From: Camelus dromedarius
Taxonomy: Eukaryota
Reading direction: 5' to 3'
DNA: 64,000 nucleotides
NCBI RefSeq assembly: GCF_036321535.1
Contig: NC_087472.1
Location: 93,622,001-93,686,000 of the forward strand
Position numbers and translations under genes: made by a program. Positions 14,314 to 64,000 of the stretch are shown here, one piece after another (position 1 is the stretch's first letter; the number at the start of each line of letters is the position of its first letter). The notes below the pieces were generated by a model that worked only from the letters and a program-made list of their open reading frames with translations, was not told the origin of the DNA and did no database searches.

Positions 14314-15844
14314 TTTTTTAATAGTATTTGATATATAGTTTTTTTTTATTTTTATTGTTTATTTATTTATTATTATTGAAGTATAGTCAGTTACAATGTG
14401 TCATTTTCCCATGTACAGCACAGTGTCTCAGTCATGCATATACATATATATTCATTTTCATATTCTTTTTCATTAAAGGTTATTATAAGGTATTGAATAC
14501 AGTTCCCTGTGCTATACAGAAGAAACGTATTTTTTATTTTTTAATTTATTTTTATATATAGTAGCTAATATTGGCAAATCTCAAACTCCCAAATTTATCC
14601 CTTCCCACCCCCTTTCCCTGGTAACCATAAGATTGTTTACTATGTCTGCAGGTCTGTTTTTGTTTTGTAGATGAGTTCATAGTGTCCTTTTTTTTATTTC
14701 TTTTTTTTTTTTTAATATTCCACATGTGAGTTATATGGTGTTTTTCTTTCTCTTTCTGATTTACTTCACTTAGAATGACAATCTCTGGGTCCATCCATGT
14801 TGCTGCAAATGGCATTATTTTATTCTTTTTTAATTGCTGAGTAGTATTACATTATATAAATATACCACAACTTCTTTATCCAGTTATCTGTCAGTGGACA
14901 TTTAGGCTGTTTCCATGTCTTGGCTATTGTATATAGTGCTGCTATGAACATTAGGGTGCATGTATCTTTTTGAATTAGAGTTCCCTCTGGATATATACCC
15001 AGAAGAAGGATTGCTGGATCATATGGTAAGTCTATTTTTAGTTTTTTGAGGAATCTCCATACTGTTTTCCATAATGACTGCACCAAACTGCATTCCCACC
15101 AGCAGTGTAGGAGGGTTCCCTTTTCTCCACACCCAATCCAGCACTTATTGTTCATGGACTTTTGAATGATGGCCGTTCTGACTGGTGTGAGGTAATACCT
15201 CATTGTAATTTTGATTTGCATTTCTCTAATAATTAGTGATATTGAGCATTTTTTCATGTGCCTATTGGCCATTTGTATGTCTTCATTGGAGAATTGCTTG
15301 GTTAGGTCTTCTGCCCATTTTTGGATTTGGTTGTTTTTTTTTTGTTATTAAGTTGTATGAGCTGTTTATATATTCTAGACATTAAGCCTTTGTCAGTCAC
15401 ATCATTTGTAAATATTTTCTCCCATTCCATGGGTTGTTGTTTTGTGTTGCTTATGGTTTCCTTTGCTATGCAAAAGCTATAAATTGAATTAGGTCCCATT
15501 TGTTTATTTTTGCTTTTATTTCTATTGCCTGGGTAGACTGCCCTACGAGAACATTGCTAAGATTTATGTCAGAGAATGTTTTGCCTATGTTTTCTTCTAG
15601 GAGGTTTATTGTGTCTTGTCTTATATTTAAGTCTAAGCCATTTTGAGTTTATTTTTGTGTATGGAGTGAGGGAGTGTTCTAACTTCACTGATTTACATGC
15701 TGCTATCCAGTTTTCCCAACACCACTTGCTGAAGAGACTATCTTTTCTCCATTGTATATTCTTGCTCCTTTGTCAAAGATTAATTGACCATGGGTCTGTG
15801 GATTTATTTCTGGGCTCTCTATTCTGTTCCATTGATCAATGTGT
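14314..15844 (-). mobile_element. Younger, 5'-truncated lineage-specific L1 with TSD
   Basis: ORF2 C-terminal ORFs 14847..15272 ([18 protein letters not shown]) and 14552..14815; TSD caaacatggtttct (14300-14313) / caaacatggattct (15845-15858). Confidence 0.95.
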
Positions 15845-19700: not shown

Positions 19701-19913
19701 GACAAAATTTCTTAAAGAGGACAAAAAAGCATGATTCATAAAGGAAATAAAAGGTAAAATAGGCTTCTTCTTTGATAGACATGGTTAAGAAAATGAAATT
19801 TCCAGCCACAGACTAGAAGGAAATATTTTCAAATCTTTTATTTGACAAAGATCTTGTATGCAGAACATATAAAGTATAAATTTAACTGAATATTAAGAAA
19901 ACAAACTATTTTT

Positions 19914-20973
19914 AGATTTTTTTATTGAAGTATAGTTGATTTACAATGTTGTGTTAGTTTCAGGTATACAGAAAACTGATTCAGTTATACGTATATATAT
20001 GAATCTATTCTTTTTCAGATTCTTTTCCACTAGAGTTTATTACAAGATATTTACTGACTATAGTTCCCCAAGCTATACAGTAGGCCCTTGTTGGTTATCT
20101 ATTTTATATATGGTAGTGTGTATGTGTTAATCCCAAGCTTCTAATTTATCCCTCCTGCCTCCTTCTCCTTTGGTAGCCTTGAGTTTGTTTTCTATGTCTG
20201 TGAGTCAATTTATGTTTCATAAATAAGTTCATTTATATCATTTTTTTAGATTCCACATATAAGTGATATCATATGATATTTTTCTTTGTCTGACTTACTT
20301 CACTTAGTATGATAATCTCTAAGTCCAACCATGTTGCTGCAAACAGCATTATTTTATTCTTTGTTATGGCTGAGTTATATTTCATTGTGTATGTATAACA
20401 CAACTTCTTTATCCATTCATCTGTTGATGACTATTTAGGTTGCTTCCATGTTTTGGCTATTGTAAGTAGTGCTACTTGGGGTGCATGTATCTTTTCGAAT
20501 TATAGTTTTCTCTGGATATGTGCCCAGGAATGAGATTGCTAGATCACACGGTAACTCTATTTTTAGTTTTTAAAGGAACCTCCATTCTGTTCTCCATAAT
20601 GGCTGCACCAATTTAGATTCCCACCAACAGTGTAGGAGGGTTCCCCTTTCTCCACACCCTTTCAGCATTTATTATTTGTAGACTTTTTGATGATGGCCAT
20701 TCTGACCAGTGTGAGGTGATTCCTCACTGTAGTTTTGATTTGCATTTCTCTGATAATTAGCGATTTTGAGCATCTTTTCATGTGCTTGTTGGCTGTCTGT
20801 ATGTCTTCTTCGGAGAAATGTCTATTTAGATCTTCTGGCCACTTTTTGGTTGGGTTATTTGCTTTTTTGATATTAAACTGTATGAGCTATTTGTATATTT
20901 TGGAAATAAATCCCTCATTGGTCTCATCGTTTGTGAATATTTTCTCCCATTACATAGGTTGTCTTTTTGCTTT
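19914..20973 (-). mobile_element. Younger 5'-truncated L1 with TSD
   Basis: Antisense L1 3'UTR and ORF2 C-terminus; TSD aaaacaaactattttt (19898-19913) / aaaacaaaccattttt (20974-20989). Confidence 0.93.
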
Positions 20974-22869: not shown

Positions 22870-23020
22870 TTATTTATTTATTTTTATTTGTTTTTGGGGG
22901 GGACGGGTAATTAGATTGATTGATTGATTGATTGATTGATTTAAATGAAGTTACTGGGGATTTAACCCAGGTCCTCATGCATGCTAGGCACACATTCTAC
23001 CCCTGAGCTATACCCTCCCC
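22870..23020 (-). mobile_element. tRNA-derived SINE, camelid Vic-1-like
   Basis: Reverse complement begins ggggagggtatagctcaggggtagaatg..gaggacctgggttaaatccccag (A/B boxes); (GATT)n within the tail. Confidence 0.88.
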
Positions 23021-26339: not shown

Positions 26340-27290
26340 ATATTTTTCTTATTGATTAGATTATTCCTATTAGCAAATAAACATTCTGTAATATTTTTCA
26401 TTAAAAGTAACACCTCTCTTGACTCTCTTTTCCTCCTTCAACTACTGTCCCATTTCTCTGCTCACCCTTACATAAAATATCCTCAAAAATCTCGTATATA
26501 GCCTAGCTGTTTCACCTTTTCTTCTCTATTTTTTCTTGCATTCACTGAAGAGTTTTAACTATTTTATACAAACTGCTTTTTTAAGGGGGAAGGGTATAGC
26601 TCAGTGGTAGAGCGTATGCCCAACAGACAGGAGGTCCTGGGTTCAATTCCCAGTACTTTCATTAAAAAATTAATAAATAAACCTAACCACCTTCCCCCAC
26701 CAAAAAAAAAGTAAAAAAAATAAATAAATAACAGCACCAAACTGCTCTTTTAAGGTCGTCAATAATGTGCATGATTCCAATTTCACTGGCCAATTTTTAG
26801 TCTTCGTCTTATTTCATTCATTAGCAACCTTTGACATTATTTTAATCCAATTTTCTAGGAACATTTATTTGATTCTCCTAATACCTCATAGGCCGGTTAT
26901 TCTATTCTCAGTCGCCTTTCCTGGTACCTGCTCATTTTTATGGCTCCTGAACTCAGAAGTACTCCAAGATTCAGTCCTCAGACCTTTATCTACAATTATT
27001 CCCTTCATAATTTCATCCAGTATCATGAATTTAAATACCATATATCCTATACACTGGTGATGCCAAAAATTTTATTTCCAACTCAGACTTCTTCCTCCAA
27101 TTCCAGACACCTATTTAACTGCCTCAGCATATCTTCTTGGATTATAAATAGGTATCTCACACTTATGTGTCCAAGACAGAACTCTGTGCATATCTTTGAT
27201 GGCTCCACTTTGCTGAGGCCCATGCCTTCGCTCTATTCCAAGTGAACGTAGTCTTCCTCTATAGAAATAGATAATTATCTATTTTAAAGC
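26340..27290 (+). mobile_element. L2 LINE fragments (interrupted by a SINE)
   Basis: Pyrimidine-rich sense L2 (ccaatttcactggccaatttttagtcttc, cagacttcttctccaattccagac). Confidence 0.72.
26585..26737 (+). mobile_element. tRNA-derived SINE, camelid Vic-1-like, with TSD
   Basis: ggggaagggtatagctcagtggtagagcg...ggtcctgggttcaattcccag, A-rich tail; TSD caaactgcttttttaa (26569-26584) / caaactgctcttttaa (26738-26753). Confidence 0.92.
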
Positions 27291-31924: not shown

Positions 31925-32046
31925 TGTGTGTGTGTGAGGGGAGGTAATCAGGTTTATTTATTTATTGATGGAGGTACTGGGGATTGAACCCAGGACCTAG
32001 TGCATGCTAAGCAGGTGCTCTATCACTGAGCTATACCTTCCCCCCA
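31925..32046 (-). mobile_element. tRNA-derived SINE, camelid Vic-1-like, inserted in a MIR
   Basis: ggaggtactggggattgaacccaggacc...cactgagctataccttcccccc; flanked by acatatatttt on both sides; MIR remnants at about 31840-32180. Confidence 0.9.
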
Positions 32047-40181: not shown

Positions 40182-41297
40182 TGTCTTAAGTTAGACATAG
40201 ATCCTTTCCTTTCCGGTTGATTCATCGTTAGTGTAAAGAAATGCAACTGATTTTTGTACATTAATCTTGTAACCTGCTACCTCGCTGAATTCTTTTATTC
40301 TAGTAGTTTTTATGTGGAACTTTTAGGGTTTTCTATATATATTATCATGTCATCTGCATATAGTGACAATTTTACCTCTTCTTTTCCAATTTGGATCCCT
40401 TTTATTTCTCTCTCTTGCCTGATTGCTGTGGCTAGGACTTCCAAGACTACATTGAATAGGAGTGGTGATAGTGGGCAGCCTTGTCTTGTCCCAGATTTTA
40501 GTGGGAAGCTTTTGAGTTTTTCACCGTTGAGTACTGTGCTGGCTGTAGGTTTGTCACATATACCTTTTATTATGTTGAGATATGTTCCCTCTATACGCAC
40601 TTTGGTGAGAGTTTTTATCATAAATAGGTGTTGAATTTTATCAAATGCTTTTTCTGCATCTGTTGAGATGATCATGTGGTTTTTGTCCTTTCTCTTGTTG
40701 ATGTGATATATTACATTGATTGATTTGCATATGTTGAACCATCCTTGTGTCCCTGGGATGAACCCAACTTGATCATGGTGTATAATCTTTTTTACGAGCT
40801 GTTGGATTTTATTTGCTAATATTTGGTAGGGATTTTTGCATCTATGTTCATCAGTGATAGTGGTCTGTAATTCTCTTTTTTGGTGGTGTCTTTGCCTGGT
40901 TTTGGTATGAGGGTGATGGTGGCTTCATGGATCCTGAGATGAGGATGCGTGTTAAAATAATTTAAGAAAGTGCTTCCAGGGGTGTCCTGTAAGAGATAGT
41001 GGAAGCCAAGGAAGGGTGTAGACTAGAGTCAAAGTCCCTCAGATGGTAACATTAGCCTGATCCCACTGGGGAACTCTGCAGAGTAAGTTATGCCTTAGAT
41101 TTACCCTTATTCCAAGCAAGGGAGCTGCAATTTCATATTGCTACACTGTTCAGTCATTGGTTAAGACCCACCCTGGGGTGGGTGGTGGGCACATTAACTC
41201 CCAGATGCTTCAAACTTTTTGCAGCTCCAGTAGCTTGAGGATAAAAGAGCTGCATACTGGTCCTGGTGCTTGGAAGGAAAAGGGAAATGGATGGTGC

Positions 41298-41375: not shown

Positions 41376-44349
41376 GTGTATCTAAAAGCTGGCTATTGGG
41401 AGCGCTTTGTTGCTACTGCATATGCTGATGTTTGTAGATACCTAATTAGGAAAGTGAAACAAAACTAGAGTCATAGTGAACAAATGCTATTCACTTCCCC
41501 AAACTAGCTGGATGGAGGGTTTGAATCCCACATTTGCCACACACCACTTCTGCCTGTTGAATGAATGATCTGGAGCATAGTGATGGAGAGCAGGGACTGA
41601 CAGTGGAAAGGTCATTTGACGCCCTCAGTGCCTACCACTGGCAAATTAACACACAGAAAGTCAATTACTTTTCCTTTTCTTGCATGGCGCAGAAAGAAAA
41701 GTTTACAGTACAAAGTCAAAATCTTGGTAAACTTAAAACTAGGAGGAAAAATATTATGGAAGGACTCAATCCTCAGCTACTAGTTAGTCCTTTTTAAAGA
41801 AATTATTTTCAAAACAAGTCTCATATGTGATTTATAATGATCTTTGGACAAACTGATACATGTTAACGTGTGAGATGGGTCTCATTGTAATAGTTGCCAG
41901 TTCCTGAAGATGAAAGCTTTAAAGGTTTATTCAAATAAAGCAGTGACCCAACTCAGAACCTCTTATTCAATATCTTGTGGCTTTAACAGGAACTATTAAA
42001 TATGTCAGGAAGACAAAGAGTCAATATAAATTACATAAAACTTTACAGGATTTTTTTCTTGAGAAATACAGTCTTCTTCCTTTAAATAAAGGACTCTGGG
42101 AAGACTCTTGGCAGCTTCAACAACATATAAAAATACTCATTTTGCCAACATTGTGAACTTAAATTGACCTGAATCACAATGACCCATGATCTTTTGTCAT
42201 GTGGAAATTTAATTGCTAATATCTGCAACTACAAATAATACAGTAATATTATATAAAATAACTTTAATGGTAAATATAAAGTGTTTACTCATTAAATAAA
42301 GACAAAAAATTTTCAAGAAGAATTAAACCTCATATAAAATAAGTTACTGTAAAGTAGAAGACAATAATCCATCTTTATTGGATACCCTTTAAAACAAATT
42401 TTTGTATTTTGCTTTCTCATATATCCTTTTCAATATTGGTCTTTCCCTTCCCTGATTTCATAGGAAATTCCTGTATGCAGAGACAATTCTTAGAATGCAT
42501 TTACTAAATATACCAGCAGTTTGACCTTAATAAAATATTTGTATGTGTCTAAGTCTTATTTAAATATTAAAACCAAAAAAAAAAAAATATGATGCGGTTT
42601 TGTTCTGGTATTCTATGACCAGAAATAATTATTTGAATTTCTACAATATGTTAGTTTTGTAGTAAAAGTAATTTTGTGGTATAAACATAGACTCTGGGAA
42701 CTTCAGGTTAGAAAATATGTAGTATCTGAGCAATCATATAACTTAGACCACTTATCTTACAAATGAGAAAACTAAAGTCAAGAAAGTCAGAGAGTAAAGG
42801 CTTAAAATGTGGACTATTTCTGAAAGATACTTCAATAGCGAATTATTCAAAGAATTGATAAACCATTTCAGCCATGACTATATAAATTTAACCCAGTCAC
42901 ATAAGGCAAATATACTGCTCTTTTTAATAAAATGAATTACTACTAACTGATATGCTTTTACATGATGAAAGATTGTACAGTAAATGATTGATCTGATTCA
43001 AATCAGTGTACTGAAAAAAATTGTTTTTCTGCTTCAGTTTGCTTTTGTTAATGGGATTTAATTTTAGAGAGAACCTCCCATAGAACATGAATGCAATTCA
43101 GGGTGGTGCAGCGGTAATGACCTGGTTGTCTTGCCACCTATTCAGGAGAAGAGACTTAGTGTTTCACAATCTAGGGATACGTTATGCCAGGGCTATTCCC
43201 TGTCTCTACTCCTATTTACTGTATCTGCTTTTGCCACCACTCTACCCTCTTTCTGCTCTTATCTTTATTGCAAAGTCTCTACTGATCCACTGCTTCTGCT
43301 TGCTGATGTGTGTGTGTGCATGTGTGTGTATTTAATTTCTGCCTTTGCTATAAACAGCTATGTCACTCACATCCAAACTTACCCAAATAAAGGATTCCTT
43401 TAGTCACCGCTGAGTACAAGGGGCTCCTCCATTAGCCCAACTCAAGGGCGCTAGCCCATCTCTATATATTTACTCCTAAGACAGGACCCCATCTTTGGGC
43501 AATAAACTTTGGTCAGAGAACCTATTCCTACTCCTTCAGCAATATATTGGGTCTAACCTTTAGCAGAGCCATCCCTGTCTGACCTCACCTTCCATGTTGT
43601 GTTTCTAAGTAAGCAAGGAGAATGCAGAGTTAACCTTCTAATTCCACCTATCCAATCACCTAACACTGACTAAATCAAGTTTATTTTCATAGATAAAGTG
43701 TTTTCAAATGTATTAACAACTCAAAGTGTATTTCCTATGCTTGGCAATGCCTGGAATTCCTTCATGGTAGAACACAACAATTAAAGCATTAAAGTACCAA
43801 TTCTTGGCTGAGGGCAGAGGTCAATTAACCAGTTGCTCAACTACTCTAAATGCTTGAATATTGATACTTCCCTGTTTCAGAGAGGAATTGGACAATAGAA
43901 ATTGGATGGGCAAAAAAAAAAAAAAAAGAGAGAGAGAGAGAAGGGAGTAGTAGCCTATAATGTGTAGGGAAAGAACTGTTGAAAAGGAAGACTAGGAATC
44001 CGTGAATACAATTTCCAGTCTTTAAGAGATTTTTTTCATTATTGTTTAGCTCTAATTTTACATAAAAGGAGAGAAATGACTTACAGTGTTACTGATTTTT
44101 CTCATACACATTCATACTCATGCTTATTTTAACACCATTTTTAAGATCCTGCATGACTGTTGACAGTGGTTGATGTGTTTTATGAAGTTTTTTTTTTTCC
44201 CTGACTCAACCACATTCATTGTAGAACAGTTTTATTATCTTGGGATTTTAGGGCAGGAGCAAACTTTCACAATCTTGCCGTTGAATTATATCCACTCTTA
44301 AACTCTGTGCCACTGTTTAATCCATAGAGACCCTGTCTAACTCATCCTT

Positions 44350-45290
44350 CTGATGAACCTCTATAGTCATGACTTCCTGCAATAGGATCTAGGAAGAAGG
44401 AAGTAAACAGCATCTTAAATGCCTGAGTATGGTGCCAGAGATTGAGAGGGATGGGTTTTGCTACCTAGGAAAAAAATTTTGGATCTCAGCTATCTGGTAC
44501 AAAATAAAGAATATGCTTGCACATCTTGATTTCCCTACCACTAAACACCCTTGGGTGACCTCTACAGATATTTGAGAAATATACCATATTATGTTGTTCT
44601 AGTTAGATCTATTTGCTGGATAAAGCAAAAGCCTGTCAGCTTTAGTGGGGCCCTGAGCAAAGACTTTCTAGCTGGTCCAAGGCACAGGACAAGTGACTTT
44701 GTCAACTGGCCCTGCTAAGACAGCACATGCTGTGGTGCTTGAATTGTCGAAGGCAGATGAGGATGTGCTATCAAGGCTGTTGTCAACCATGGAAGAAGAA
44801 TCATGGAGGAAGATCCAAGACTCTGGGGGCTAAGTTACACCTGCTTTACCAACTGTTTTCTTCTTGAGAAGAACCTGTGGATCAGTTCACAGAGACTGAA
44901 TTCCTACCATGGGAATACTTGACTCTAGCCACTATCATAAACTGGGTACAATCCATTGTGCCCAGCCATAAAATCTGGTATAGTCAGCAGCTCTTAAATA
45001 TCAAGTGAAATCATACATGTACAGCACTGAGCCTGAGCAAGTTCTAAAGGCATAAGTAATTTACATAAGCAGATAACTCATACTTCCAGAGTGCCTTACT
45101 CCTACCAAATGACTTCTCCTTCTTCAAACTACATCTGTGGCCTGCTGGGGAATTCCCTATGACAAATTAAGTAGGGGGAAAAAAGCTCAAATCGTAATTA
45201 CAAGTAGCTCTGCCTTATAGCAAAAATGAACTCCTGCAGCATTACAGCCCCCAGGAGGAACCTTTAAGATAAGTGAGAAATGGAATCCTT
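44350..45290 (+). mobile_element. Highly decayed ERVL/MaLR internal (pol-derived) fragment
   Basis: gctttagtggggccctgagcaa, cttgagaagaac, atcataaactggg, aggcataagtaatttacataagcag resemble the ERVL RT connection region. Confidence 0.6.
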
Positions 45291-52059: not shown

Positions 52060-52237
52060 GTATATTTCAGTTGAAAGTGACAGAAAACAGCCAAAATTAG
52101 CCTTAGCAAATAGGAATGTGTAGTGTCAAGAAAATGCAAAGACCAGGTATGGCTTTTCAGAAACTCAGGAATATCTCTGGGCCTTGGGTTTCCTCTCTTC
52201 CTCTCTTGGCTCTGCTTCCTTTGGGTGGGTATCATTG
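52060..52237 (-). mobile_element. Old MaLR LTR (MLT1J/K/N-like), target of the ERV-S insertion; resumes at about 56110
   Basis: tttcagttgaaagtgacagaaaac..caaaattagccttagcaaa...tggctctgcttcct...cattg|aagcaggttctc. Confidence 0.65.
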
Positions 52238-52589
52238 TGTCAGCAGTCTTAAGTGAGTAGGCCGTGGGACCCAGGTCAAAGTTCACAATACCTTTCATGT
52301 GTATGAGGTAAGAAGTAAATGTATGCATGTGCTAGTGGCATGAGTAAGCATTATAAACAATACGCATGCGCCAATAGCATGAGTCAGCATTATAAACAAT
52401 ATGCATGCACAAGCATAATAAAAGGACAAGCATGTACACCTGCGGGCGCCACCTGCCACCAGCTCGTACTGCAATAAAGTGCCGTTTTGCTCCATGTCAG
52501 CTCTTTGCGCATTATGTCGGCTCCTCATGCCTTTTTCCTGTTGGGCAGCTCACCTCCTGGGATCCCTCTCCAGCCTCCCGCGGCTGACA
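52238..52589 (+). repeat. 5' LTR (352 bp)
   Basis: Termini tgtcagc...gctgaca (7-bp inverted repeat); tandem U3 repeats; AATAAA in R; homologous to 55778-56104. Confidence 0.96.
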
Positions 52590-52591
52590 CT

Positions 52592-52609
52592 TGGCGTAGT
52601 CGGCAGGAT
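52592..52609 (+). promoter_or_regulatory. Primer binding site complementary to tRNA-Ser
   Basis: TGGCGTAGTCGGCAGGAT is the complement of the tRNA-Ser 3' end AUCCUGCCGACUACGCCA and lies 2 nt after the LTR. Confidence 0.93.
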
Positions 52610-52656
52610 GAAGTGAGTGCCCCTCTGTTCCCCCTTCCTCTGATGGGGAAGCTCGG

Positions 52657-53920
52657 ATGGAAACAATGTGGCCCCCTACCTCTTTATGGTACCTGGTAGC
52701 AGCTTACTTGCTGGCATGGGACCCACCTGAAGATTGGGATACAGTGGCGCACTGGCCAGATGACTTCCGGAAAGCTCTGGAGTTGTTGGAAAACAATGTC
52801 CCACAGGCCCACCAGGAGGCGGCCGGGAGGGTAGCCTGGATGTTTTTATTGTCTTACACCATGCCAGCTGAGAAAATAGAGAATTACAGATACATTAGAG
52901 CAGTTACAGCGTAAGGAAGAGGAACTCGAGCAGACTCGGTATGGCAGAAAGATGCCTGCATGGCTCCAGTTCCACCGCCTCTTCAACAGTGGTAAACCCA
53001 GTTCCCCCATTCCGCTGTGTCTACGACCCATGGTGCGGCAGCGGGTGGAACTAGAGGAACCCATGGCCCAGGGAGGAGCTCCTGTGGGACCACAGCGAGC
53101 GACTCGACAAACCACCTACACGTCTTACACGTCGATGGAATTGTGGGACCTGGCAAAGCAGTGTAAACAGCTTATGGGTGAGTCAGTCCCCGCATGGCTA
53201 TTACACCTTTGGGATGATGGGGCCGACCAGACTGAACTATCTCCAAAGGAAATGGGCCAGATGGCCAGTATAACAACCGTCCCTTCATTGCGGCAACGGC
53301 TGCAAAACATTCCCCAGTCTAATACTAATGCTGGCAACCATACATTAATAAACTGGTTGATGGCTCCTGCATGCACTATATGGGATATTTCAGGGGATTT
53401 ACCTGAACACGTGAGTAAATGGACCACGTATTTGGATCTAGCGCAAGTTGTCTGAGAAATGGGAATGCACCAAATGATGTTTGCTTTGCAATTCAGCAGC
53501 CCAGATGACGAAGTTCTTACAGCTTGGATGCAGGACTTGATTTTGGCTAATGGCCCAGCGGGAACGTTTGGGACCGTGGTGGCACTACTAGCGCCGTATA
53601 TAGACCGCCCCATACATGAGGTAATTGAGGCTCTGGCTCATCTAGGGGATGTAAAGGTGTGCCAGAAGAGGGTACGTACTGCCAAGACTCAAGGTGAATT
53701 CACAGCTTCCTCCCATGCAGTGACTCAGAAAGGAAAGCCCACACAAGGGGGAAAAAAGCACCAGAAAGTAAGTCGCTGACAAATATGGTGCAGCTTACTG
53801 GCGGCTGGCTTGACCATGCAAAATTGGACAGCCAACCATTGGAGGCCCTGATGGCCCTATGGAGGAAATTACAGCCTGAGCAACAATATACCCCATTGCT
53901 GACCTCCCTACAAGCCTGAG
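52657..53920 (+). pseudogene. gag: ERV-S/ERVL-type gag, disrupted
   Basis: ORF pieces 52657..52914, 52952..53455 (AWLLHLWDDGADQTELSPKEMGQMASITTVPSLRQRL) and 53459..53779; the last two are separated by a single in-frame TGA. Confidence 0.85.
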
Positions 53921-53959
53921 AGGTGGCCCTTACTGATTTTCTCCCAGGCTACGGGGAAG

Positions 53960-54865
53960 GCCAAGGCGTTCAGGACATGGGGAACCTCGGCAACCAGAGG
54001 CCACATGTTGAACTGACTATCCACTGGTCCCCCATGAACAAACAGCAGGTATTGGCATTAGTAGATACAGGAGCTGAAATTACATTATTACATGGAAATC
54101 TGGATTGCTTTCAGGGACCATGAAAGCAATCCCGTAGAGGGATATGAAAGCAAGCAAATGCAAGTTAAACGAGTGAGTCTGACTTTAGGTATTGGCCACT
54201 TGCCCCATGCTGCATGTAAAGTACATATATCCCCAGTAGCTGAGTATATCCTGGGAATAGACATTTTACTAGGATTGCAAATACAGATGACCCAAGGAAA
54301 ATTTCGCCTGAGAGTTCCTGTGGTGAAAACAGATAGGACGGACTATCTTAAAACTTGAGAAAGCCGGTATTATTCAGCCAACACAGCCCGTATAACTCTC
54401 CAATGTGGCCAGTATGGAAGCCAGATGGCTCCTGGAGGATGACAGTGGACTATCAAGAACTGAACAAAGTCACCGCTCCATGCATGCAGCTGTGCCAAGT
54501 ATAACAGATTTGATGGACCACCTGTCCCACAAACTGGGTACTTACCTCTACATGGTTGACCTGGCCAGTGCATCCTTCTCTATAGATAAAGCCCCTGAGA
54601 GCCAGGAACAGTTTGTGTTTCTACCTGGGAAGGTAGACAATGGACGTTTGTTGTGTTACCATAGGGATATTTGCACAGCCCCCACACTGTGCCATGGCCT
54701 GGTGGCTCAGGACCTGGTTACATGGAGCAAACTGGACACTGTTCATTTGTTCCATTATATAGATGACATAATACTAACCTCTGATTCTCTTTCAGATTTG
54801 GAAACCAGTGCCACAGCTCTGCGGGAAGCCCTGGTGGGCTAGGGGTGGACTGTAAACAACAAAAT
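53960..54865 (+). pseudogene. pol: Protease plus N-terminal RT, truncated (no RNase H or integrase)
   Basis: LALVDTGAEITLLHGN (protease DTG); [39 protein letters not shown]. Confidence 0.92.
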
Positions 54866-55768
54866 GGCAGTACCTGGAGGGCAAGGAAACCTGCTCTGTG
54901 GCAGTACTTGTTCATGTAAAATGGACAAGTCTTAGCCCCTTCTGTATCGAACAGCAGTTTGAATGCAAGGCCCCAAACCGCACAGTGAGATGGCTCCCCA
55001 AAGGGCTATGTGCCCACATTACTCGCAATGTAAATGCCTCTACTTAGTGGGATGGACAGCGTTTGATTGGCACAAAACCCACAGATTTCCTGCCACCAGG
55101 GTATCTCTGGGTATGTGGCACCCATGGATGGTCATATCTCCTGGCTAAATGGACAGGGCACTGTACTTGGGGTAAAGTGTACTTGCCTGGTCATATCCGG
55201 CCCACTTTAACAGAACACCCCACGAACCGGAATCCGCTGCACACCTGGTGGCACCACGAAGGGTGTGCAGCTTGATGGTGTTATCCCATGGCCCTGTTCC
55301 TGCCTCGTGCGGGGACCATCAGTGTAGAGTTGCAGGTAAAGGCTTTAGCTCAGCACATATCAGCTGCATTAAATGTCACTAGAAAAACCATAGAAGAATT
55401 ATTAGATGAGACCACCCAAATGCAGAATGTGGTCTTACAAAACAGGATGGTGTTAGATATTCTCACTGCAAGCCAAGGCAGCACATGTGCTATGTTACAT
55501 ATTGAATGCTGTATCTATATAGCAGATCACCAGAAGGAAGTAGCTGAGGCACTACAAAAAAATAGATCAAGAACTAGATCACATAGACCATGTAACTCAA
55601 GACCCCCTTAAGAATTGGTGGTCATCCTTAAACTCCTCCTGGAGATGGGGCCTAACTGTCCTGGCCGTTGTAGCTGCCTGCTTAGTGATAGGATGCTGTT
55701 CACTATATTGTTGTTGTAGTCTTTGGGCACAGGGCTTGGCTCTATGGGCCATGGTCCCCATTACCTAG
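54866..55768 (+). pseudogene. env: env remnant (C-terminal SU plus TM, gamma-type)
   Basis: GYLWVCGTHGWSYL..WTGHCTWG; ISD LQNRMVLDILTA; CX6CC CAMLHIECC; membrane anchor WRWGLTVLAVVAACLVIGCC; TAG at 55766-55768 overlapping the PPT. Confidence 0.92.
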
Positions 55769-55777
55769 GGGGTGGAA

Positions 55778-56104
55778 TGTTGGCAGTCTTAAGTGAGTAG
55801 GCCGTGGGACCCAGGTTAAAGTTCACAATAACTTGCATGTGTATGAGGTAAGAAGTAAATGTATGCATGCGCTAGTAGCATGAATAAGCATTATAAACAA
55901 TACACATGCGCCAATAGCATGCGTAAGTATTGTGAACAATATGCATGTGCAGGCATAATAAAAGGACAAGTGCATACACCTGAGGGCACGCCACCCGATT
56001 GTACAGCAATAAAGTGCTGTTTTGCTCTATTTTGGCTCCTCGCGCCTTCTTCCAGTTGGGCAGCTCACCTCCTCAAATCCCTCTCCAGTCTCCCGCGGCT
56101 GACA
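55778..56104 (+). repeat. 3' LTR (327 bp)
   Basis: Follows the PPT; ends cccgcggctgaca; followed by TSD cgttg. Confidence 0.96.
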
Positions 56105-56499
56105 CGTTGAAGCAGGTTCTCACCTGACTACATGAGAAATTATTATCAAGAGAAGATGGAATAGATGTTAGATAGATAAAAAATGTTTACTACATTTAGA
56201 AATGGATTCATTTTTGTGTATTCAGGAGTGTTAACACCTTTAAGGCTGCAAATTTGGAGTATGGGAGAGAATAGAGGCAGAAACTTTGAAGCATCCTAGA
56301 AATTGCCCACAGACCATTCCTACTAAAGAGTCATGCGATGTTACTTAATGCTATTTAAGATTTAGTAAGTAAATGGGAAATGCATAGCAGTGTTTGAGGT
56401 CAGATGAGGGTGACTTAGGTGAAAAAATAGAAGTTATCAGTAAAAATAGGTTTTTATATTTTAACATTTACAAGATTATAGTGAAGTACTCAGAAGTAA

Positions 56500-60059: not shown

Positions 60060-60340
60060 GAATGGAGTGACGTGAATCAGTGCTCTGGAGTCCAAGCTCT
60101 CAGGGACCGGGCAGGGCGGGGCTGCTTTATAGGTAAGTGGGGGAGGGGGCAGAGTGCTTGCCCGACAGGCGCAGGCGCACTGCTCACGCTCCAGCTCGCA
60201 GTGCCAGGCGCGTCTCTGTACCCGCCGCCGCCATTTTGAAGGCGTCCGGCGCCGCGCTTCCGCTCGCGCCCTCCCAAATTGTTTCTGCGCTGGGAACTCT
60301 AATTCTACATGTAAAGGTGCAAGGCTTCTGCGCTGGGGTC
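60060..60340. promoter_or_regulatory. CpG-island-like promoter region
   Basis: About 22 CpGs in 60101-60340 (hand count) in an otherwise CpG-depleted window. Motifs: TGACGTGA 60068-60075, GC box 60114-60121, NRF1-like GCGCAGGCGCA 60169-60179, YY1 CCGCCATTTT 60228-60237. Confidence 0.8.
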
Positions 60341-60615
60341 CCTACAGGCAAGTAAAACTAGACTAAGATTAGACCTTATCACCTAGATTCCGTTTTATTT
60401 TTCCCAGGGACCCCAGTGGGCTTTGCTAGTGATAAAACCCCCCTCTGCCTTTCGTTCCCTCCTCATTCTCAAGGGACGCTGAGGGGCGCAAGTCCGTCTT
60501 CCATAAGGGCTTCCTGCTGAGTTTGGGAATCCTCAGAACCCGGGGTAGGGGAGGAGAATTTCTCCTCAGTTACTTTTAGATATGTGTGATTGTCACTAGG
60601 CTTAACTGCTCAGGC

Positions 60616-60930
60616 CTATCCAGCCCTGAGCGACCTCTGTTTGTCTAATCTTTTGGAAACAGAGGACACCAGACAGTTTAAGATACACAGCCCAAATGTC
60701 AGCAAGAGAATAGTGGTTATTAAGGGGCCCAGGAGAGGTACAAACCAAGTGACGCTGGGGAGGGCTTGTGTTACCGTGCTCCACATTCGTTTGGCCAGAT
60801 TAGGCTGGCTGCCTTCCGTTTGCAAGTTGCATTTTCCAGTAGCCTGTCCATACTTTCTTCAGTCAGGCCACCTGTTTTGACGTAAAAGCAACATGATGTA
60901 TTGGGCATCACACAGACCCTTTAACCCTGG
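60616..60930 (-). pseudogene. env: env TM C-terminal remnant
   Basis: CX6CC CVMPNTSCCFY at about 60875-60915; membrane anchor WFVPLLGPLITTILLLTFGLCILNCLVSSVSKRL. Confidence 0.88.
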
Positions 60931-61029
60931 TCAGCTCAACAGATCCTGAAATCTCTACTGCTTGGCAAGGCATATAAGAATACTTACCTTTTGCCGTTTT
61001 TTCAGAAAGGGAGTTTTAGTTCAGAGACA

Positions 61030-62169
61030 GATTCACAAGAGTAATCAGGGGTCCGTTGTCTTGGGTTGTTTCTCTGGAGGTTGGGGCTCAGGAGCCCTCT
61101 TCACTTGGCTATGATGCCCCTCATAGAGTGATCCCTGAAGCTTTGGGGCCGAATGAGTGGTTAGGATCACTAAATGGGGTCCGTTCCACTTAGGAGTGAG
61201 CTTATCTTGTGGGCTTTTTAGATGTAACTTTAACGTATCCATTGGGGCTAACCTCATGCTGAGCAGGGCAATCAGGAGCAGGTTAATCCAATTTTCTTGA
61301 GTTTAATGCTTCTATCCACTTGGAAAATGTGTCTACTAACACCAAGAGATACCTAAAATTGCCCGGTACTCTAGGCGTAGCAGTGAAATCAGTCTGCCAA
61401 TATTCTCCAGGATAAGTCTCTCTGCTTTGAATGACTGAGTCTGGGAGGGCCAGGGCAGGGGCCTGAAGTAATTGCTTTTTCACTTCTTGAAAGGCCCCTT
61501 CATATTCTTAATTCCATGCAAAAGAATCATCATCCTTTCCTTTCAACTTTTCATATACAGGCCCAGCTATTAGACCATAGTTAGGGATCCAGATGTAGCA
61601 AAATCTGGCCATTCCCAGGAATCTCTTAAGCTTTCTTCTGGTTTTAGGAGGGGGCAAGGATGCAAATGGTTTCTTTCCTTTCCTGGGGAAGGCTTCTCTG
61701 ACCTGTTCAAATGAAGCCAAAGTAGTTCACCGTGCTTTGTGATATTTGAGCCTTTTTCTTGGACTCTTTATATCCTTTATTGGCTGGGTGGTTTAGGGTG
61801 GTTACATGTTTTTGTCAGAGGCCTCTTCAGTAAGGCTAGTGATCAGAACGTCATCTATATACCAGAGGAGGGTTTCCTCCTCCAGATGTAGATCTTTTAC
61901 ATCTTCAGCTAAAGTGTCCCCAGAGGTGGTGGGGGAAGTTTTGAACCCTTGGGGCAGGACTATCCAACTGTATTGTTTTTGTTGCACGTTGAGTCCTGCT
62001 GCTCAGAAGCAAAAATTTCTTTCCCTGATACGCCTATAATTTTACAACTCTTGCGATTGAGTTTATCTGATCTGGTGTTCAGAACTAAGTGGCACTGGTA
62101 TCAGCTAAGAATTCGATAGGCTTTCCCCCTATGTTCATTGTCAGCCAGGGCTCCTTGAGGGTCACTGGA
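61030..62169 (-). pseudogene. pol: pro/pol remnant with large deletions
   Basis: Protease IEFLADTSAT; RT WIVLPQGFKTSP..WYIDDVLI; FLGMARFCYIWIPNY; QAPALALPD fused to integrase PGEYWQTDFT..LVLVDTFSKWIEA; IN C-terminus PKWNGPHLVILTT. Confidence 0.92.
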
Positions 62170-63745
62170 GTGTCAGCTTAGGAACCCTCTGTCCCCATCA
62201 TTCTTCATCTACTTGGACGATCTGCCTTCGAGGGTGGTGGCCAGGATTTGCCTTTTCCATCTCCCTTCAGGGGTGGTGAGGGCATTTTCTCTTCCAGTGT
62301 CCCTCTTATTTACATATGGTGCACTGATTGGGTCCTAGTTTCCTTGGTTTGTTATCCCTTGTTGTGGACCTGGGGTCACTCACCTGAGTTGAGTGTCTCC
62401 ATAGGCAGTTAGTCCAGATTCCTGTGCCAGCGGGTTGCCATTGGAGGACAACAGCCAGTAGGTGGGCTTGCCTCTGGGCCTTTTTGTCTTCTGACTTTTC
62501 CTTCTCTGTATCTCAGTTTTTAAATACCCAGTAGGCAGTCTTGACCAGGCCAAAGGTAGGGGTATCTGGTTCCATTTCTAGTTTTTGAAGTTTATGTCTA
62601 ATGTTGGGGTCACTTTGGGAAATGAAATATGACCTCAGGATTGCATTCCAAGCAGTTACTCAGGGTCAGTTATAGTATGGATTCAGACGCATTCCCCTGA
62701 GGCACTCTAGGAATGCCAAAGGGTTTTCTGTTGGCTCCTGATTGATTTCCTTTTTCTTATTCTGACAGGTTTCTTTCTTATTCTGACAGGTTTCTTCCCT
62801 GCTGCCTGGATTCCCTTTAGGATTATATTTTTATGATGGGTCATCCTATGTCTTCCACCCCTTTCTCCATTGTCTTGATGGTCCCAATTGGGGCCATTAT
62901 CTGGGATCACTTGATTCCCTGCTCTGAGAATAGAATGGCCTTCATTGCTTCTGTTCTTTTTGTCTGCTTCCTCTCAGGCTTTCGAAAAGGCCATGGCCTT
63001 TTCTTCCCCCATTAGGAGTACATTGAGGGGGCTCTGGCTGTCAGCCCTGGTGGGGTCATGGATCTGAAAGACTCCCCTAATCAGATTCAGCAACCCCTCT
63101 GAATCGTCCCTTAGCCCGTTACTTTGACTTTTTCAGTTACATATATCAGAAGTGGTAAATGGGACATATACCTGAATAAGCCCTCCTTCTCCATCAGGGA
63201 CCTGCCTCAAAGAGAGTACATTTCCTGGTGGGTTGTAGGACCCTGGCTGGTAATTAGTCCTTCTTCGTGTACTTGCTGGACTGGGTTCTGGGGGATGGGG
63301 CTGCTATGGAGGGGGACCCTCAGGCCTGTGGCACAAATCAGGATATATAAAGGAAGAGGGGAGGGAGGGAGCAGTAAAAGGAGGGTTAGGGAGGAGATCA
63401 AGGAGGCCCTCAAGAGGAGGGTCAAGGACTGGTATTGCCTCACTGGAGGAGAGCCCACATCCCTTTTGAAAGCCTTTGTTCTGATAAAAGGCCATAAAAA
63501 ACCGGACACAGGGAATTTCATCCTATTTCTTTTGTCTCTGGCCTAGTCGGTCCAGTTGTAAAATGATGTAATTTAGAGACCCACTGATGGGCCAACTTTC
63601 CCCATTTCCCAGCCAGTATTGTAGCCAGGCTGTATTACATAGGAAAATTAAATGTTTTGGGGTCAGGGTGATACCTGAAAAACTTCCAGTTCTATGAGAT
63701 GCACCCTAACATGCTATCCAGTATGGTGGACATTTGGTTTTCCAT
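62170..63745 (-). pseudogene. gag: Gamma-type gag remnant (MA-CA-NC)
   Basis: ATG at 63745 (MENQMS..LGC); LIFLCNTAWLQY..WPISGSLNY; CA YVPFTTSD; single zinc knuckle NQCTICK*EGHWKRKCP at about 62280-62335. Confidence 0.88.
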
Positions 63746-64000
63746 ATTTTAGATTTTGATTTATTTCCAACTACCAAGGGGGACAGTTGGAGTGATTTCT
63801 TGGCACGCAGTTGCCACAAGATATGACCCAAATAAGATTTCTGGTTTGGGAAATTTGGAACCAACACCAAACTGTTAAAGGATTCCTCAAAAGACCAAAA
63901 TAGGTGTCCAGGTGGCATGGACTCTGATATAACTGGGGATCCCCTTGAATTTGCAACAGCCTGTGCTTGAGATAGTCCCTCCTCATTCAGAATATCCACC

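Follow-up and report, generated by a model that had tools for sequence, protein, structure and literature searches.

A decayed env-bearing class III provirus, probably of the ERV-S lineage, in the dromedary genome

Endogenous retroviruses (ERVs) of class III do not all lack an envelope gene. Class III members that carry an env are known from primates, bats, rhinoceros and frogs, among them HERV-S, which corresponds to HERV18 or HERVL18 of Repbase, with the long terminal repeats (LTRs) LTR18A-C, and to the group HERVS of Vargiu 2016 (PMC4724089). Here we describe a provirus at positions 52233-56109 of a 64-kb window, the whole stretch of DNA analysed, from the dromedary, Camelus dromedarius. 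It is very probably a defective, internally deleted member of the ERV-S (HERV-S/HERV18-like) lineage of class III ERVs, whose entry into the germ line would date from a camelid ancestor.

The provirus shares with HERV-S a class III gag-pro-pol, a reverse transcriptase (RT) with the YIDD motif, a primer-binding site (PBS) for tRNA-Ser, LTRs of similar size, and the loss of coding capacity, as well as a class I env with the same type of immunosuppressive domain (ISD) and a similar C-terminus of the surface subunit (SU). The LTR divergence of 8-20% in the HERVS rows of PMC4724089 is also similar. It differs from HERV-S in its host order, in a large internal deletion, in an RT about 61% identical to that of a HERV-S-like protein, and in the start of its LTR, which by eye looks unrelated to the start of the HERVS consensus in that source.

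Other described elements are comparable in part. ERV-S.1-Dbi of the black rhinoceros (bioRxiv 10.1101/2024.03.17.585361) is likewise a Laurasiatherian class III element with an env, a Ser PBS and a 5-nt direct repeat, but according to its published description, on which the comparison is based, it is reported to be intact and recent, with identical 792-bp LTRs, a tRNA-Ser(CGA) PBS and an alpha-like gamma-type Env bearing a SIRP-like domain. XtERV-S (PMC8278194) has in common the class III backbone, a class I transmembrane subunit (TM), the Ser PBS, a 5-bp target-site duplication (TSD) and the occurrence of deleted copies; it is, however, an intact frog element, related to ERV-L, with a dUTPase-like segment, and is named for its PBS. 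ERV-L, HERV-L and MuERV-L share a class III Fv1-like Gag (according to the Atlas), YIDD and the 5-bp TSD, whereas they are env-less, possess a dUTPase, mostly use a Leu or Met PBS and have RTs 36-37% identical to that of the provirus. The nearest non-camelid proteins, from Molossus (KAF6403649), Rousettus (KAF6485485) and Saccopteryx (XP_066124192), are known here as proteins alone.

For camelids, a survey of transposable elements (PMC8605555) reports about 1000-1300 'ERVL' full-length elements per genome, with ERV-S not separated, and its libraries may hold the family of the provirus. One of the alpaca LTR families in Repbase, LTR2_Vpa, has a 351-nt match in the dromedary (PMC6726744), against 352 nt for the 5' LTR of the provirus, a comparison by length alone. 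No title among the matches listed in the open-licence literature concerned a camelid ERV-S. We tentatively treat the provirus as a new, or at most uncharacterised, ERV-S member.

Placement among class III retroviruses

An earlier note, made by reading the DNA alone, had proposed ERV-S membership and had named the grouping of the RT beforehand as its test. The RT was read with an X at each break and compared with HMMER representatives (184 matches to E 0.001, 150 of them listed) and with P0015. The 47-row tree includes the 46 of 149 BLAST matches that each covered at least 105 of 180 residues; the other 103, covering fewer than 105 amino acids (aa), were left out. In this tree the RT fell inside an 18-row ERV-S-like clade (support 95/89), together with HERV-S-like P0015 and an RT of the bat Saccopteryx, and apart from two HERV-L-like rows and from class III RTs of caecilian, fish, turtle and crane. 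It shares 61% of its residues with P0015 and 36-37% with the HERV-L-like P0075 and P0113, and a forced clade with HERV-L-like RTs was rejected by the approximately unbiased (AU) test (p=0.0002). An ERV-L element would have its RT in the ERV-L clade and no env; the same AU test (p=0.0002) speaks against the former, and an env is present. The top HMMER match, P0016 (5280 aa, 23 stretches, 25%), was dropped from the tree as a repeat artefact. A word search for longer relatives of the RT returned one of 496 candidates.

By eye, the Gag start, capsid, protease, RT, SU C-terminus and TM parallel the consensus putative proteins (puteins) of HERVS in PMC4724089, while the HERVL, HERVL32 and HERVL66 puteins of the same source parallel the provirus much less; the consensus sequences of Vargiu 2016 were compared over their first ~400 letters only. 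From the ISD to the CX6CC motif, 20 of 28 residues are identical to HERVS by hand count. The SU C-terminus and TM follow HERVS by eye, and this Env may belong to the HERV-S/PRIMA41 subgroup. In the Atlas, the Gag of an alpaca relative described below lies nearest an Fv1/DUF5535 cluster (0.93) and the TM nearest TLV_coat clusters (0.95). The RT clade, the AU test and the by-eye likeness to HERVS together lead us to assign the provirus to ERV-S, in agreement with the earlier proposal.

ERV-S membership also requires a tRNA-Ser PBS and a gamma-type (class I) env with ISD and CX6CC, and both are present. The earlier note had gone further and taken the Ser PBS, the 5-bp TSD and the gamma-type env as characteristic of the lineage. 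This is too strong, as the markers are not individually diagnostic: ERV-L has a 5-bp TSD and XtERV-S a Ser PBS (PMC8278194), 2 of 87 HERV-L chains carry a Ser PBS (PMC4724089), class I envs are also found in HERVL32 and HERVL66 (PMC4724089, PMC5753468), and Ser-PBS ERVs of the horse have been classified by PBS only (PMC5682256).

Several points weigh against the assignment. The tree rows called HERV-S or HERV-L are unnamed database proteins, matched by eye to the Vargiu consensus, and named references for HERV-S, foamy viruses and ERV-S.1-Dbi are absent from it. At 171 columns the RT piece is short, and it leaves the interior of the ERV-S clade unresolved. The ISD is identical to syncytin-1 at 18 of 28 residues by hand count, and is therefore weakly diagnostic alone. 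No dUTPase match was obtained in the provirus, an absence that cannot be scored because the region after the integrase is deleted. As to the history proposed below, the age spreads from 14 to 64 million years (My) over four rates.

Anatomy and decay of the provirus

All features of the provirus lie on the forward (+) strand. The left TSD, CATTG (52233-52237), is followed by a 5' LTR of 352 nt (52238-52589), and the right TSD, CGTTG (56105-56109), is preceded by a 3' LTR of 327 nt (55778-56104). The LTRs both have TGT...ACA ends and are identical at 289 of 327 aligned bases, with two indels (5 nt, 20 nt). The TSD agrees at 4 of 5 bases, the sole mismatch being at a CpG (chance p=0.02 for at least 4 of 5, with fixed junctions and local composition), and when read as 4 bp or 6 bp it gave no alignment at the LTR junctions. 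The 5-bp TSD, TGT...ACA ends and YIDD, which are the criteria for class III in PMC8278194, are all found here. The observed/expected CpG ratio of the LTRs is 0.53-0.57, against 0.05-0.26 across most of the window. Motifs in the 5' LTR, consensus matches only, are TATAAA at 52352 and 52391, CCAAT at 52371 and AATAAA at 52473.

The PBS (52592-52609), 2 nt past the 5' LTR, is complementary at 18 of 18 positions to the 3' end of tRNA-Ser (UGA template), and in PMC3299991 the identical 18-mer stands at the start of DNA templates from which human tRNA-Ser is transcribed. Decayed forms of this Ser PBS occur at HERV-S loci in supplement rows of PMC4724089, and string searches of the supplements of that paper did not return the exact string. 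Just 3' of the PBS stands GTGAGT (52613-52618), a putative splice donor, and a polypurine tract (PPT) occupies 55767-55777. The earlier note had read the paired LTRs, the TSD with its one CpG-type change and the full PBS as they stand here, and likewise the ERVL-type gag, protease and RT and the gamma-type TM with ISD and CX6CC.

The gag gene, of ERV-S type (52666-53950, the 3' border being approximate), was recognised by its relatives and by its by-eye likeness to HERVS Gag. It is broken by frame changes near 52890, 52930, 53005 and 53820 and by stops at 53453, 53777 and 53917. Pfam and PDB gave no useful match to gag, and a DUF997 match was rejected as below its cut-off. The protease (53995-54330), identified by Pfam and by-eye HERVS comparison, has its DTG at 54064 and a frame change near 54120; relative to HERV-S about 30 codons are gone, by eye, at its border with the RT. 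Homology then defines the fingers and palm of the RT (54330-54863), with YIDD at 54756, four frame changes, two stops and an abrupt end. The env remnant (54865-55768), identified by Pfam, structure matches and likeness to HERVS by eye, comprises the C-terminal SU, the TM, a membrane span and a short tail, and is damaged by stops at 55045 and 55273, a degenerate cleavage site near 55252 and a frame change near 55550. Its TM, with the ISD LQNRMVLDILTA at 55435 and CX6CC at 55486, matches gamma-type TM structures (syncytin-1, murine leukaemia virus (MLV)-like and others). In Pfam, RVP (1e-3) and RVT_1 (1e-4) are both below the curated cut-off, and TLV_coat reaches 1.3e-12.

RT homology ends near 54860, where homology to the C-terminal SU begins, so that some 2.7 kb of the middle must be gone; the junction lies approximately at 54855-54870. 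The RT thumb, RNase H, the integrase and the N-terminal part of env are deleted. The figure of ~2.7 kb is inferred from HERVS chain lengths: the interior of the provirus measures 3188 nt, against totals of 5.4-7.0 kb for HERV-S chains in supplement rows of PMC4724089. As gag, pro, RT and env all contain stops or frame changes, no gene is open, and the provirus is unable to make Gag, Pol or Env; any present-day effect would come from its LTRs, acting as promoter or poly(A) sites. The earlier note ranked the preservation of this copy far above that of nearby ERVL relics. This is right relative to an ERV-L-like relic near 44200, and does not extend to the element itself, with ~2.7 kb missing and every gene broken, two points that the note does not mention.

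Among 24 listed sequencing runs, 15 (one organism, 6 studies) contain 0.88-0.91 of the words of a 6-kb stretch around the provirus, which argues that the locus is not an assembly artefact. The list is one of best-holding runs, one of which may be the source of the window itself, and it cannot reveal polymorphism. Five RNA or possibly-RNA runs contain 0.06-0.20 of the words, which is no evidence of expression.

No second copy of the provirus was found within the window. The ERV-L-like pol relic at 44200-45100 is highly decayed, its only tblastn match covering 36 aa at 47% (44224-44331). Some 4 kb downstream of the provirus, a class I (gamma-like) ERV relic on the minus strand occupies 60400-64000 and runs off the end of the window. 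It contains a Gag_p30 match (62710-62973, E 1e-3) and the C-terminus of an MLV integrase (61048-61302, E 5e-5), both below cut-off; it looks internally deleted, and no env was seen in it. A short CpG-rich stretch at 60060-60300, in a window otherwise poor in CpG, carries GCGCAGGCGC and GCCGCCATTTT motifs, which we take to be NRF1- and YY1-like, and is either a host promoter or part of the LTR of the class I element. ARAGORN and Rfam called tRNAs at 22946-23017 (-), 26590-26661 (+) and 31969-32040 (-). Their identity as tRNAs was rejected, as they are the heads of tRNA-derived short interspersed elements (SINEs) with A-rich tails, presumably of the camelid Vic-1 type, which together with the nearest protein relatives of the provirus points to a camelid host. 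L1 fragments, 73-75% alike pairwise, lie at 1936-2497, 14362-15444, 19911-20969 and 40328-40894. The first 59 kb of the window are AT-rich, and no long open reading frame outside repeats in the 64 kb resembled a host exon.

Camelid relatives and age

A search with Gag returned four matches among 2112 candidates: Vicugna pacos XP_072817704, Molossus molossus KAF6403649, the Rousettus KAF6485485 cluster and Camelus dromedarius KAB1282868. The alpaca Gag is 79% identical to the provirus. The dromedary protein joins pieces of gag and env and is identical at 186 of 234 residues (79.5%); over the env remnant, 71 of 88 are identical. The two have diverged to roughly the same degree as the copy in the window. 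Since the camelid host represents one tribe, at least one of the two must be a paralogue. Judged from these proteins, the ERV-S family occupies two loci or more, is represented in both camelid tribes and, in the dromedary, includes env. The presence of relatives in alpaca and dromedary supports a camelid family, as the earlier note had suspected, and the invasion probably predates or spans the camel-llama split.

The further expectation of intact relatives or an open env elsewhere found no support: the camelid relatives are equally diverged, and none of 385 candidates scored as an env relative of 334-2000 aa, which is a weak test. Searches for DNA of relatives gave 3 pattern matches in viral contigs and 70 in metagenome contigs, with none confirmed in either, and the LTR-end/PBS pattern had no match in metagenome contigs.

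The alpaca gene model (XP_072817704.1, P0003) begins in an LTR like that of the provirus, reads on through the same LTR end and PBS, and seems to be spliced from the donor position after the PBS into gag, where about 317 Gag residues are free of stops. The model may reflect an LTR-driven transcript.

The Kimura two-parameter (K2P) distance between the LTRs is 0.128 (95% bootstrap 0.089-0.175), or 0.098 without CpG sites. This corresponds to 14, 19, 29 or 64 My at 4.5, 3.3, 2.2 or 1.0e-9 substitutions per site per year, and to ~13 My at the rate of 5e-9 given in PMC8605555. Neutral decay has thus lasted roughly 14-29 My, a range that depends on the rate. The camel-llama split is placed at 11-25 million years ago, and the origin of camelids in Eocene North America (PMC4884201). 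Simulated neutral decay at 0.05-0.064 per branch leaves 76-80% protein identity, and the camelid pair shows 79%. The LTR differences are unevenly distributed, with 8 sites in the first 120 aligned bases (52238-52360, 55778-55900) and 29 in the next 180. This may be partial gene conversion or chance; if it is gene conversion, the age is underestimated.

Proposed history and significance

The parent of the provirus would have been an enveloped class III retrovirus, combining an ERV-L/S-type Gag-Pro-Pol with a captured gamma-type Env that was presumably expressed from a message spliced at the putative donor. It would have entered the germ line in a camelid ancestor; its reverse transcription would have been primed by tRNA-Ser and its integration accompanied by a 5-bp duplication, as the anatomy shows. 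Copies would have come to occupy several loci in the ancestors of camels and llamas, at least two being seen and the wider extent presumed. From the copy in the window, ~2.7 kb covering the middle of pol and the start of env would have been deleted, most simply once it had integrated, and neutral decay since then would have left it inert today at the protein level.

Beyond camelids, the closest Gag is that of a free-tailed bat, Molossus. Over the capsid core, Molossus is 72% identical to the camelid copies (124/173 and 125/174), which are 79% identical to each other and 60-63% to the Rousettus cluster; Molossus and Rousettus are 60% identical. A five-row Gag tree joins Molossus and the camelids (100/100) against two Rousettus-cluster rows, a near-forced split with few rows. 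The RT of Saccopteryx XP_066124192 is 64% identical to the provirus. In several Logan contigs a Rousettus ERV-S Gag fragment recurs as an uninterrupted frame of 187 aa (cluster of 8; P0005, P0007-P0013). Neutral distance between bats and camels is about 0.3 or more, and in a simulation of neutral descent at a total distance of 0.3-0.35 protein identity falls to 51-55%. Measured against this, the 72% of Molossus makes a cross-order spread of ERV-S between camelids and Molossus bats plausible, as far as protein comparison can tell. Against such spread, purifying selection and hidden paralogy could explain the same identity, and the evidence is one 178-residue fragment.

Other accounts of the provirus differ in how much of this history they would change. 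Post-integration deletions are common in old ERVs, and no second copy with the same deletion junction was seen, the two camelid relatives being gene-model proteins from which the structure of their pol and env cannot be read. A non-autonomous subfamily, deleted before integration and copied in trans by a complete helper virus, is for this reason the less likely course, yet one to be taken seriously: the short genome keeps all cis signals (LTRs, PBS, leader, PPT) and also gag, deleted XtERV-S copies have amplified likewise (19 deleted, 11 structurally similar; PMC8278194), and short, possibly non-autonomous LTR clusters are reported for ERV1 of the alpaca (PMC8605555). It would alter the timing of the deletion only, which more probably followed integration. 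Far less probable is an ERV-L-like element, of XtERV-S or HERVL32/66 type, that captured a class I env independently and merely resembles HERV-S. Class III ERVs have indeed captured class I envs repeatedly, and neither a Ser PBS nor a 5-bp TSD is exclusive, but the RT clade and the AU test oppose it, and Gag, protease, SU and the part of Env after CX6CC follow HERVS rather than the HERVL, HERVL32 and HERVL66 puteins.

The bat and camelid copies could also descend vertically from one ancestral germ-line family, an old Laurasiatherian ERV-S. The LTR divergence of 0.128 is well under the ~0.3 or more of an insertion older than the bat-camel split, the simulation at 0.3-0.35 yields 51-55% identity and not 72%, and the Molossus Gag is nearer to the camelids than to the Rousettus cluster. 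We consider such descent improbable, even though a Gag held by purifying selection evolves slowly while its lineage replicates, low camelid rates would push the LTR age back, ERV-S relatives occur in many bats (HERV-S-related ERVs in 29 and 34 species; PMC12402889), and ERVS-like elements are found across amniotes (PMC5753468). Least probable of all is a role as a domesticated gene or regulatory element, whether for this locus or for a sister copy. The alpaca Gag is open over ~317 residues where ~4 lesions would be expected (p=0.018 per copy for an open frame), its model opens in the LTR and apparently takes the donor that follows the PBS, and the LTRs are rich in CpG relative to most of the window. 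However, the window copy has no intact gene, its env, being truncated with two stops and one frame change, is not that of a syncytin-like domesticated gene, an annotated model may jump over breaks, and chance would be expected to leave one frame open in a family of tens of copies. The alpaca protein and the window copy are equally far from the outgroup (both 72% to Molossus, with end branches of 0.13 each), so that an alpaca Gag as distant as a dead copy gives no sign of conservation.

With the provirus regarded, as before, as a decayed ERV-S member of camelid-ancestor origin, a wider scenario can be put forward tentatively, at somewhat less than even confidence. An unreported ERV-S lineage may have been an infectious enveloped class III retrovirus of Oligocene-Miocene mammals that made its way independently into the germ lines of two groups, stem camelids and free-tailed bats, with North America a plausible setting. 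Camelids lived there in the Oligocene-Miocene, and one study has reportedly found cross-order ERV transfer in mammals.

Taken alone, the locus carries little weight, being a single dead copy. The family extends the host range of env-bearing class III retroviruses to camelids, and might be used as a presence/absence marker for the time of the split between camels and llamas. Were the wider scenario true, the family would provide a dated and geographically anchored record of cross-order transmission by a retrovirus group with no known living member. Should the Molossus link hold in DNA, with dated orthologous insertions, it would mean that ERV-S moved between mammalian orders and not only with its hosts.

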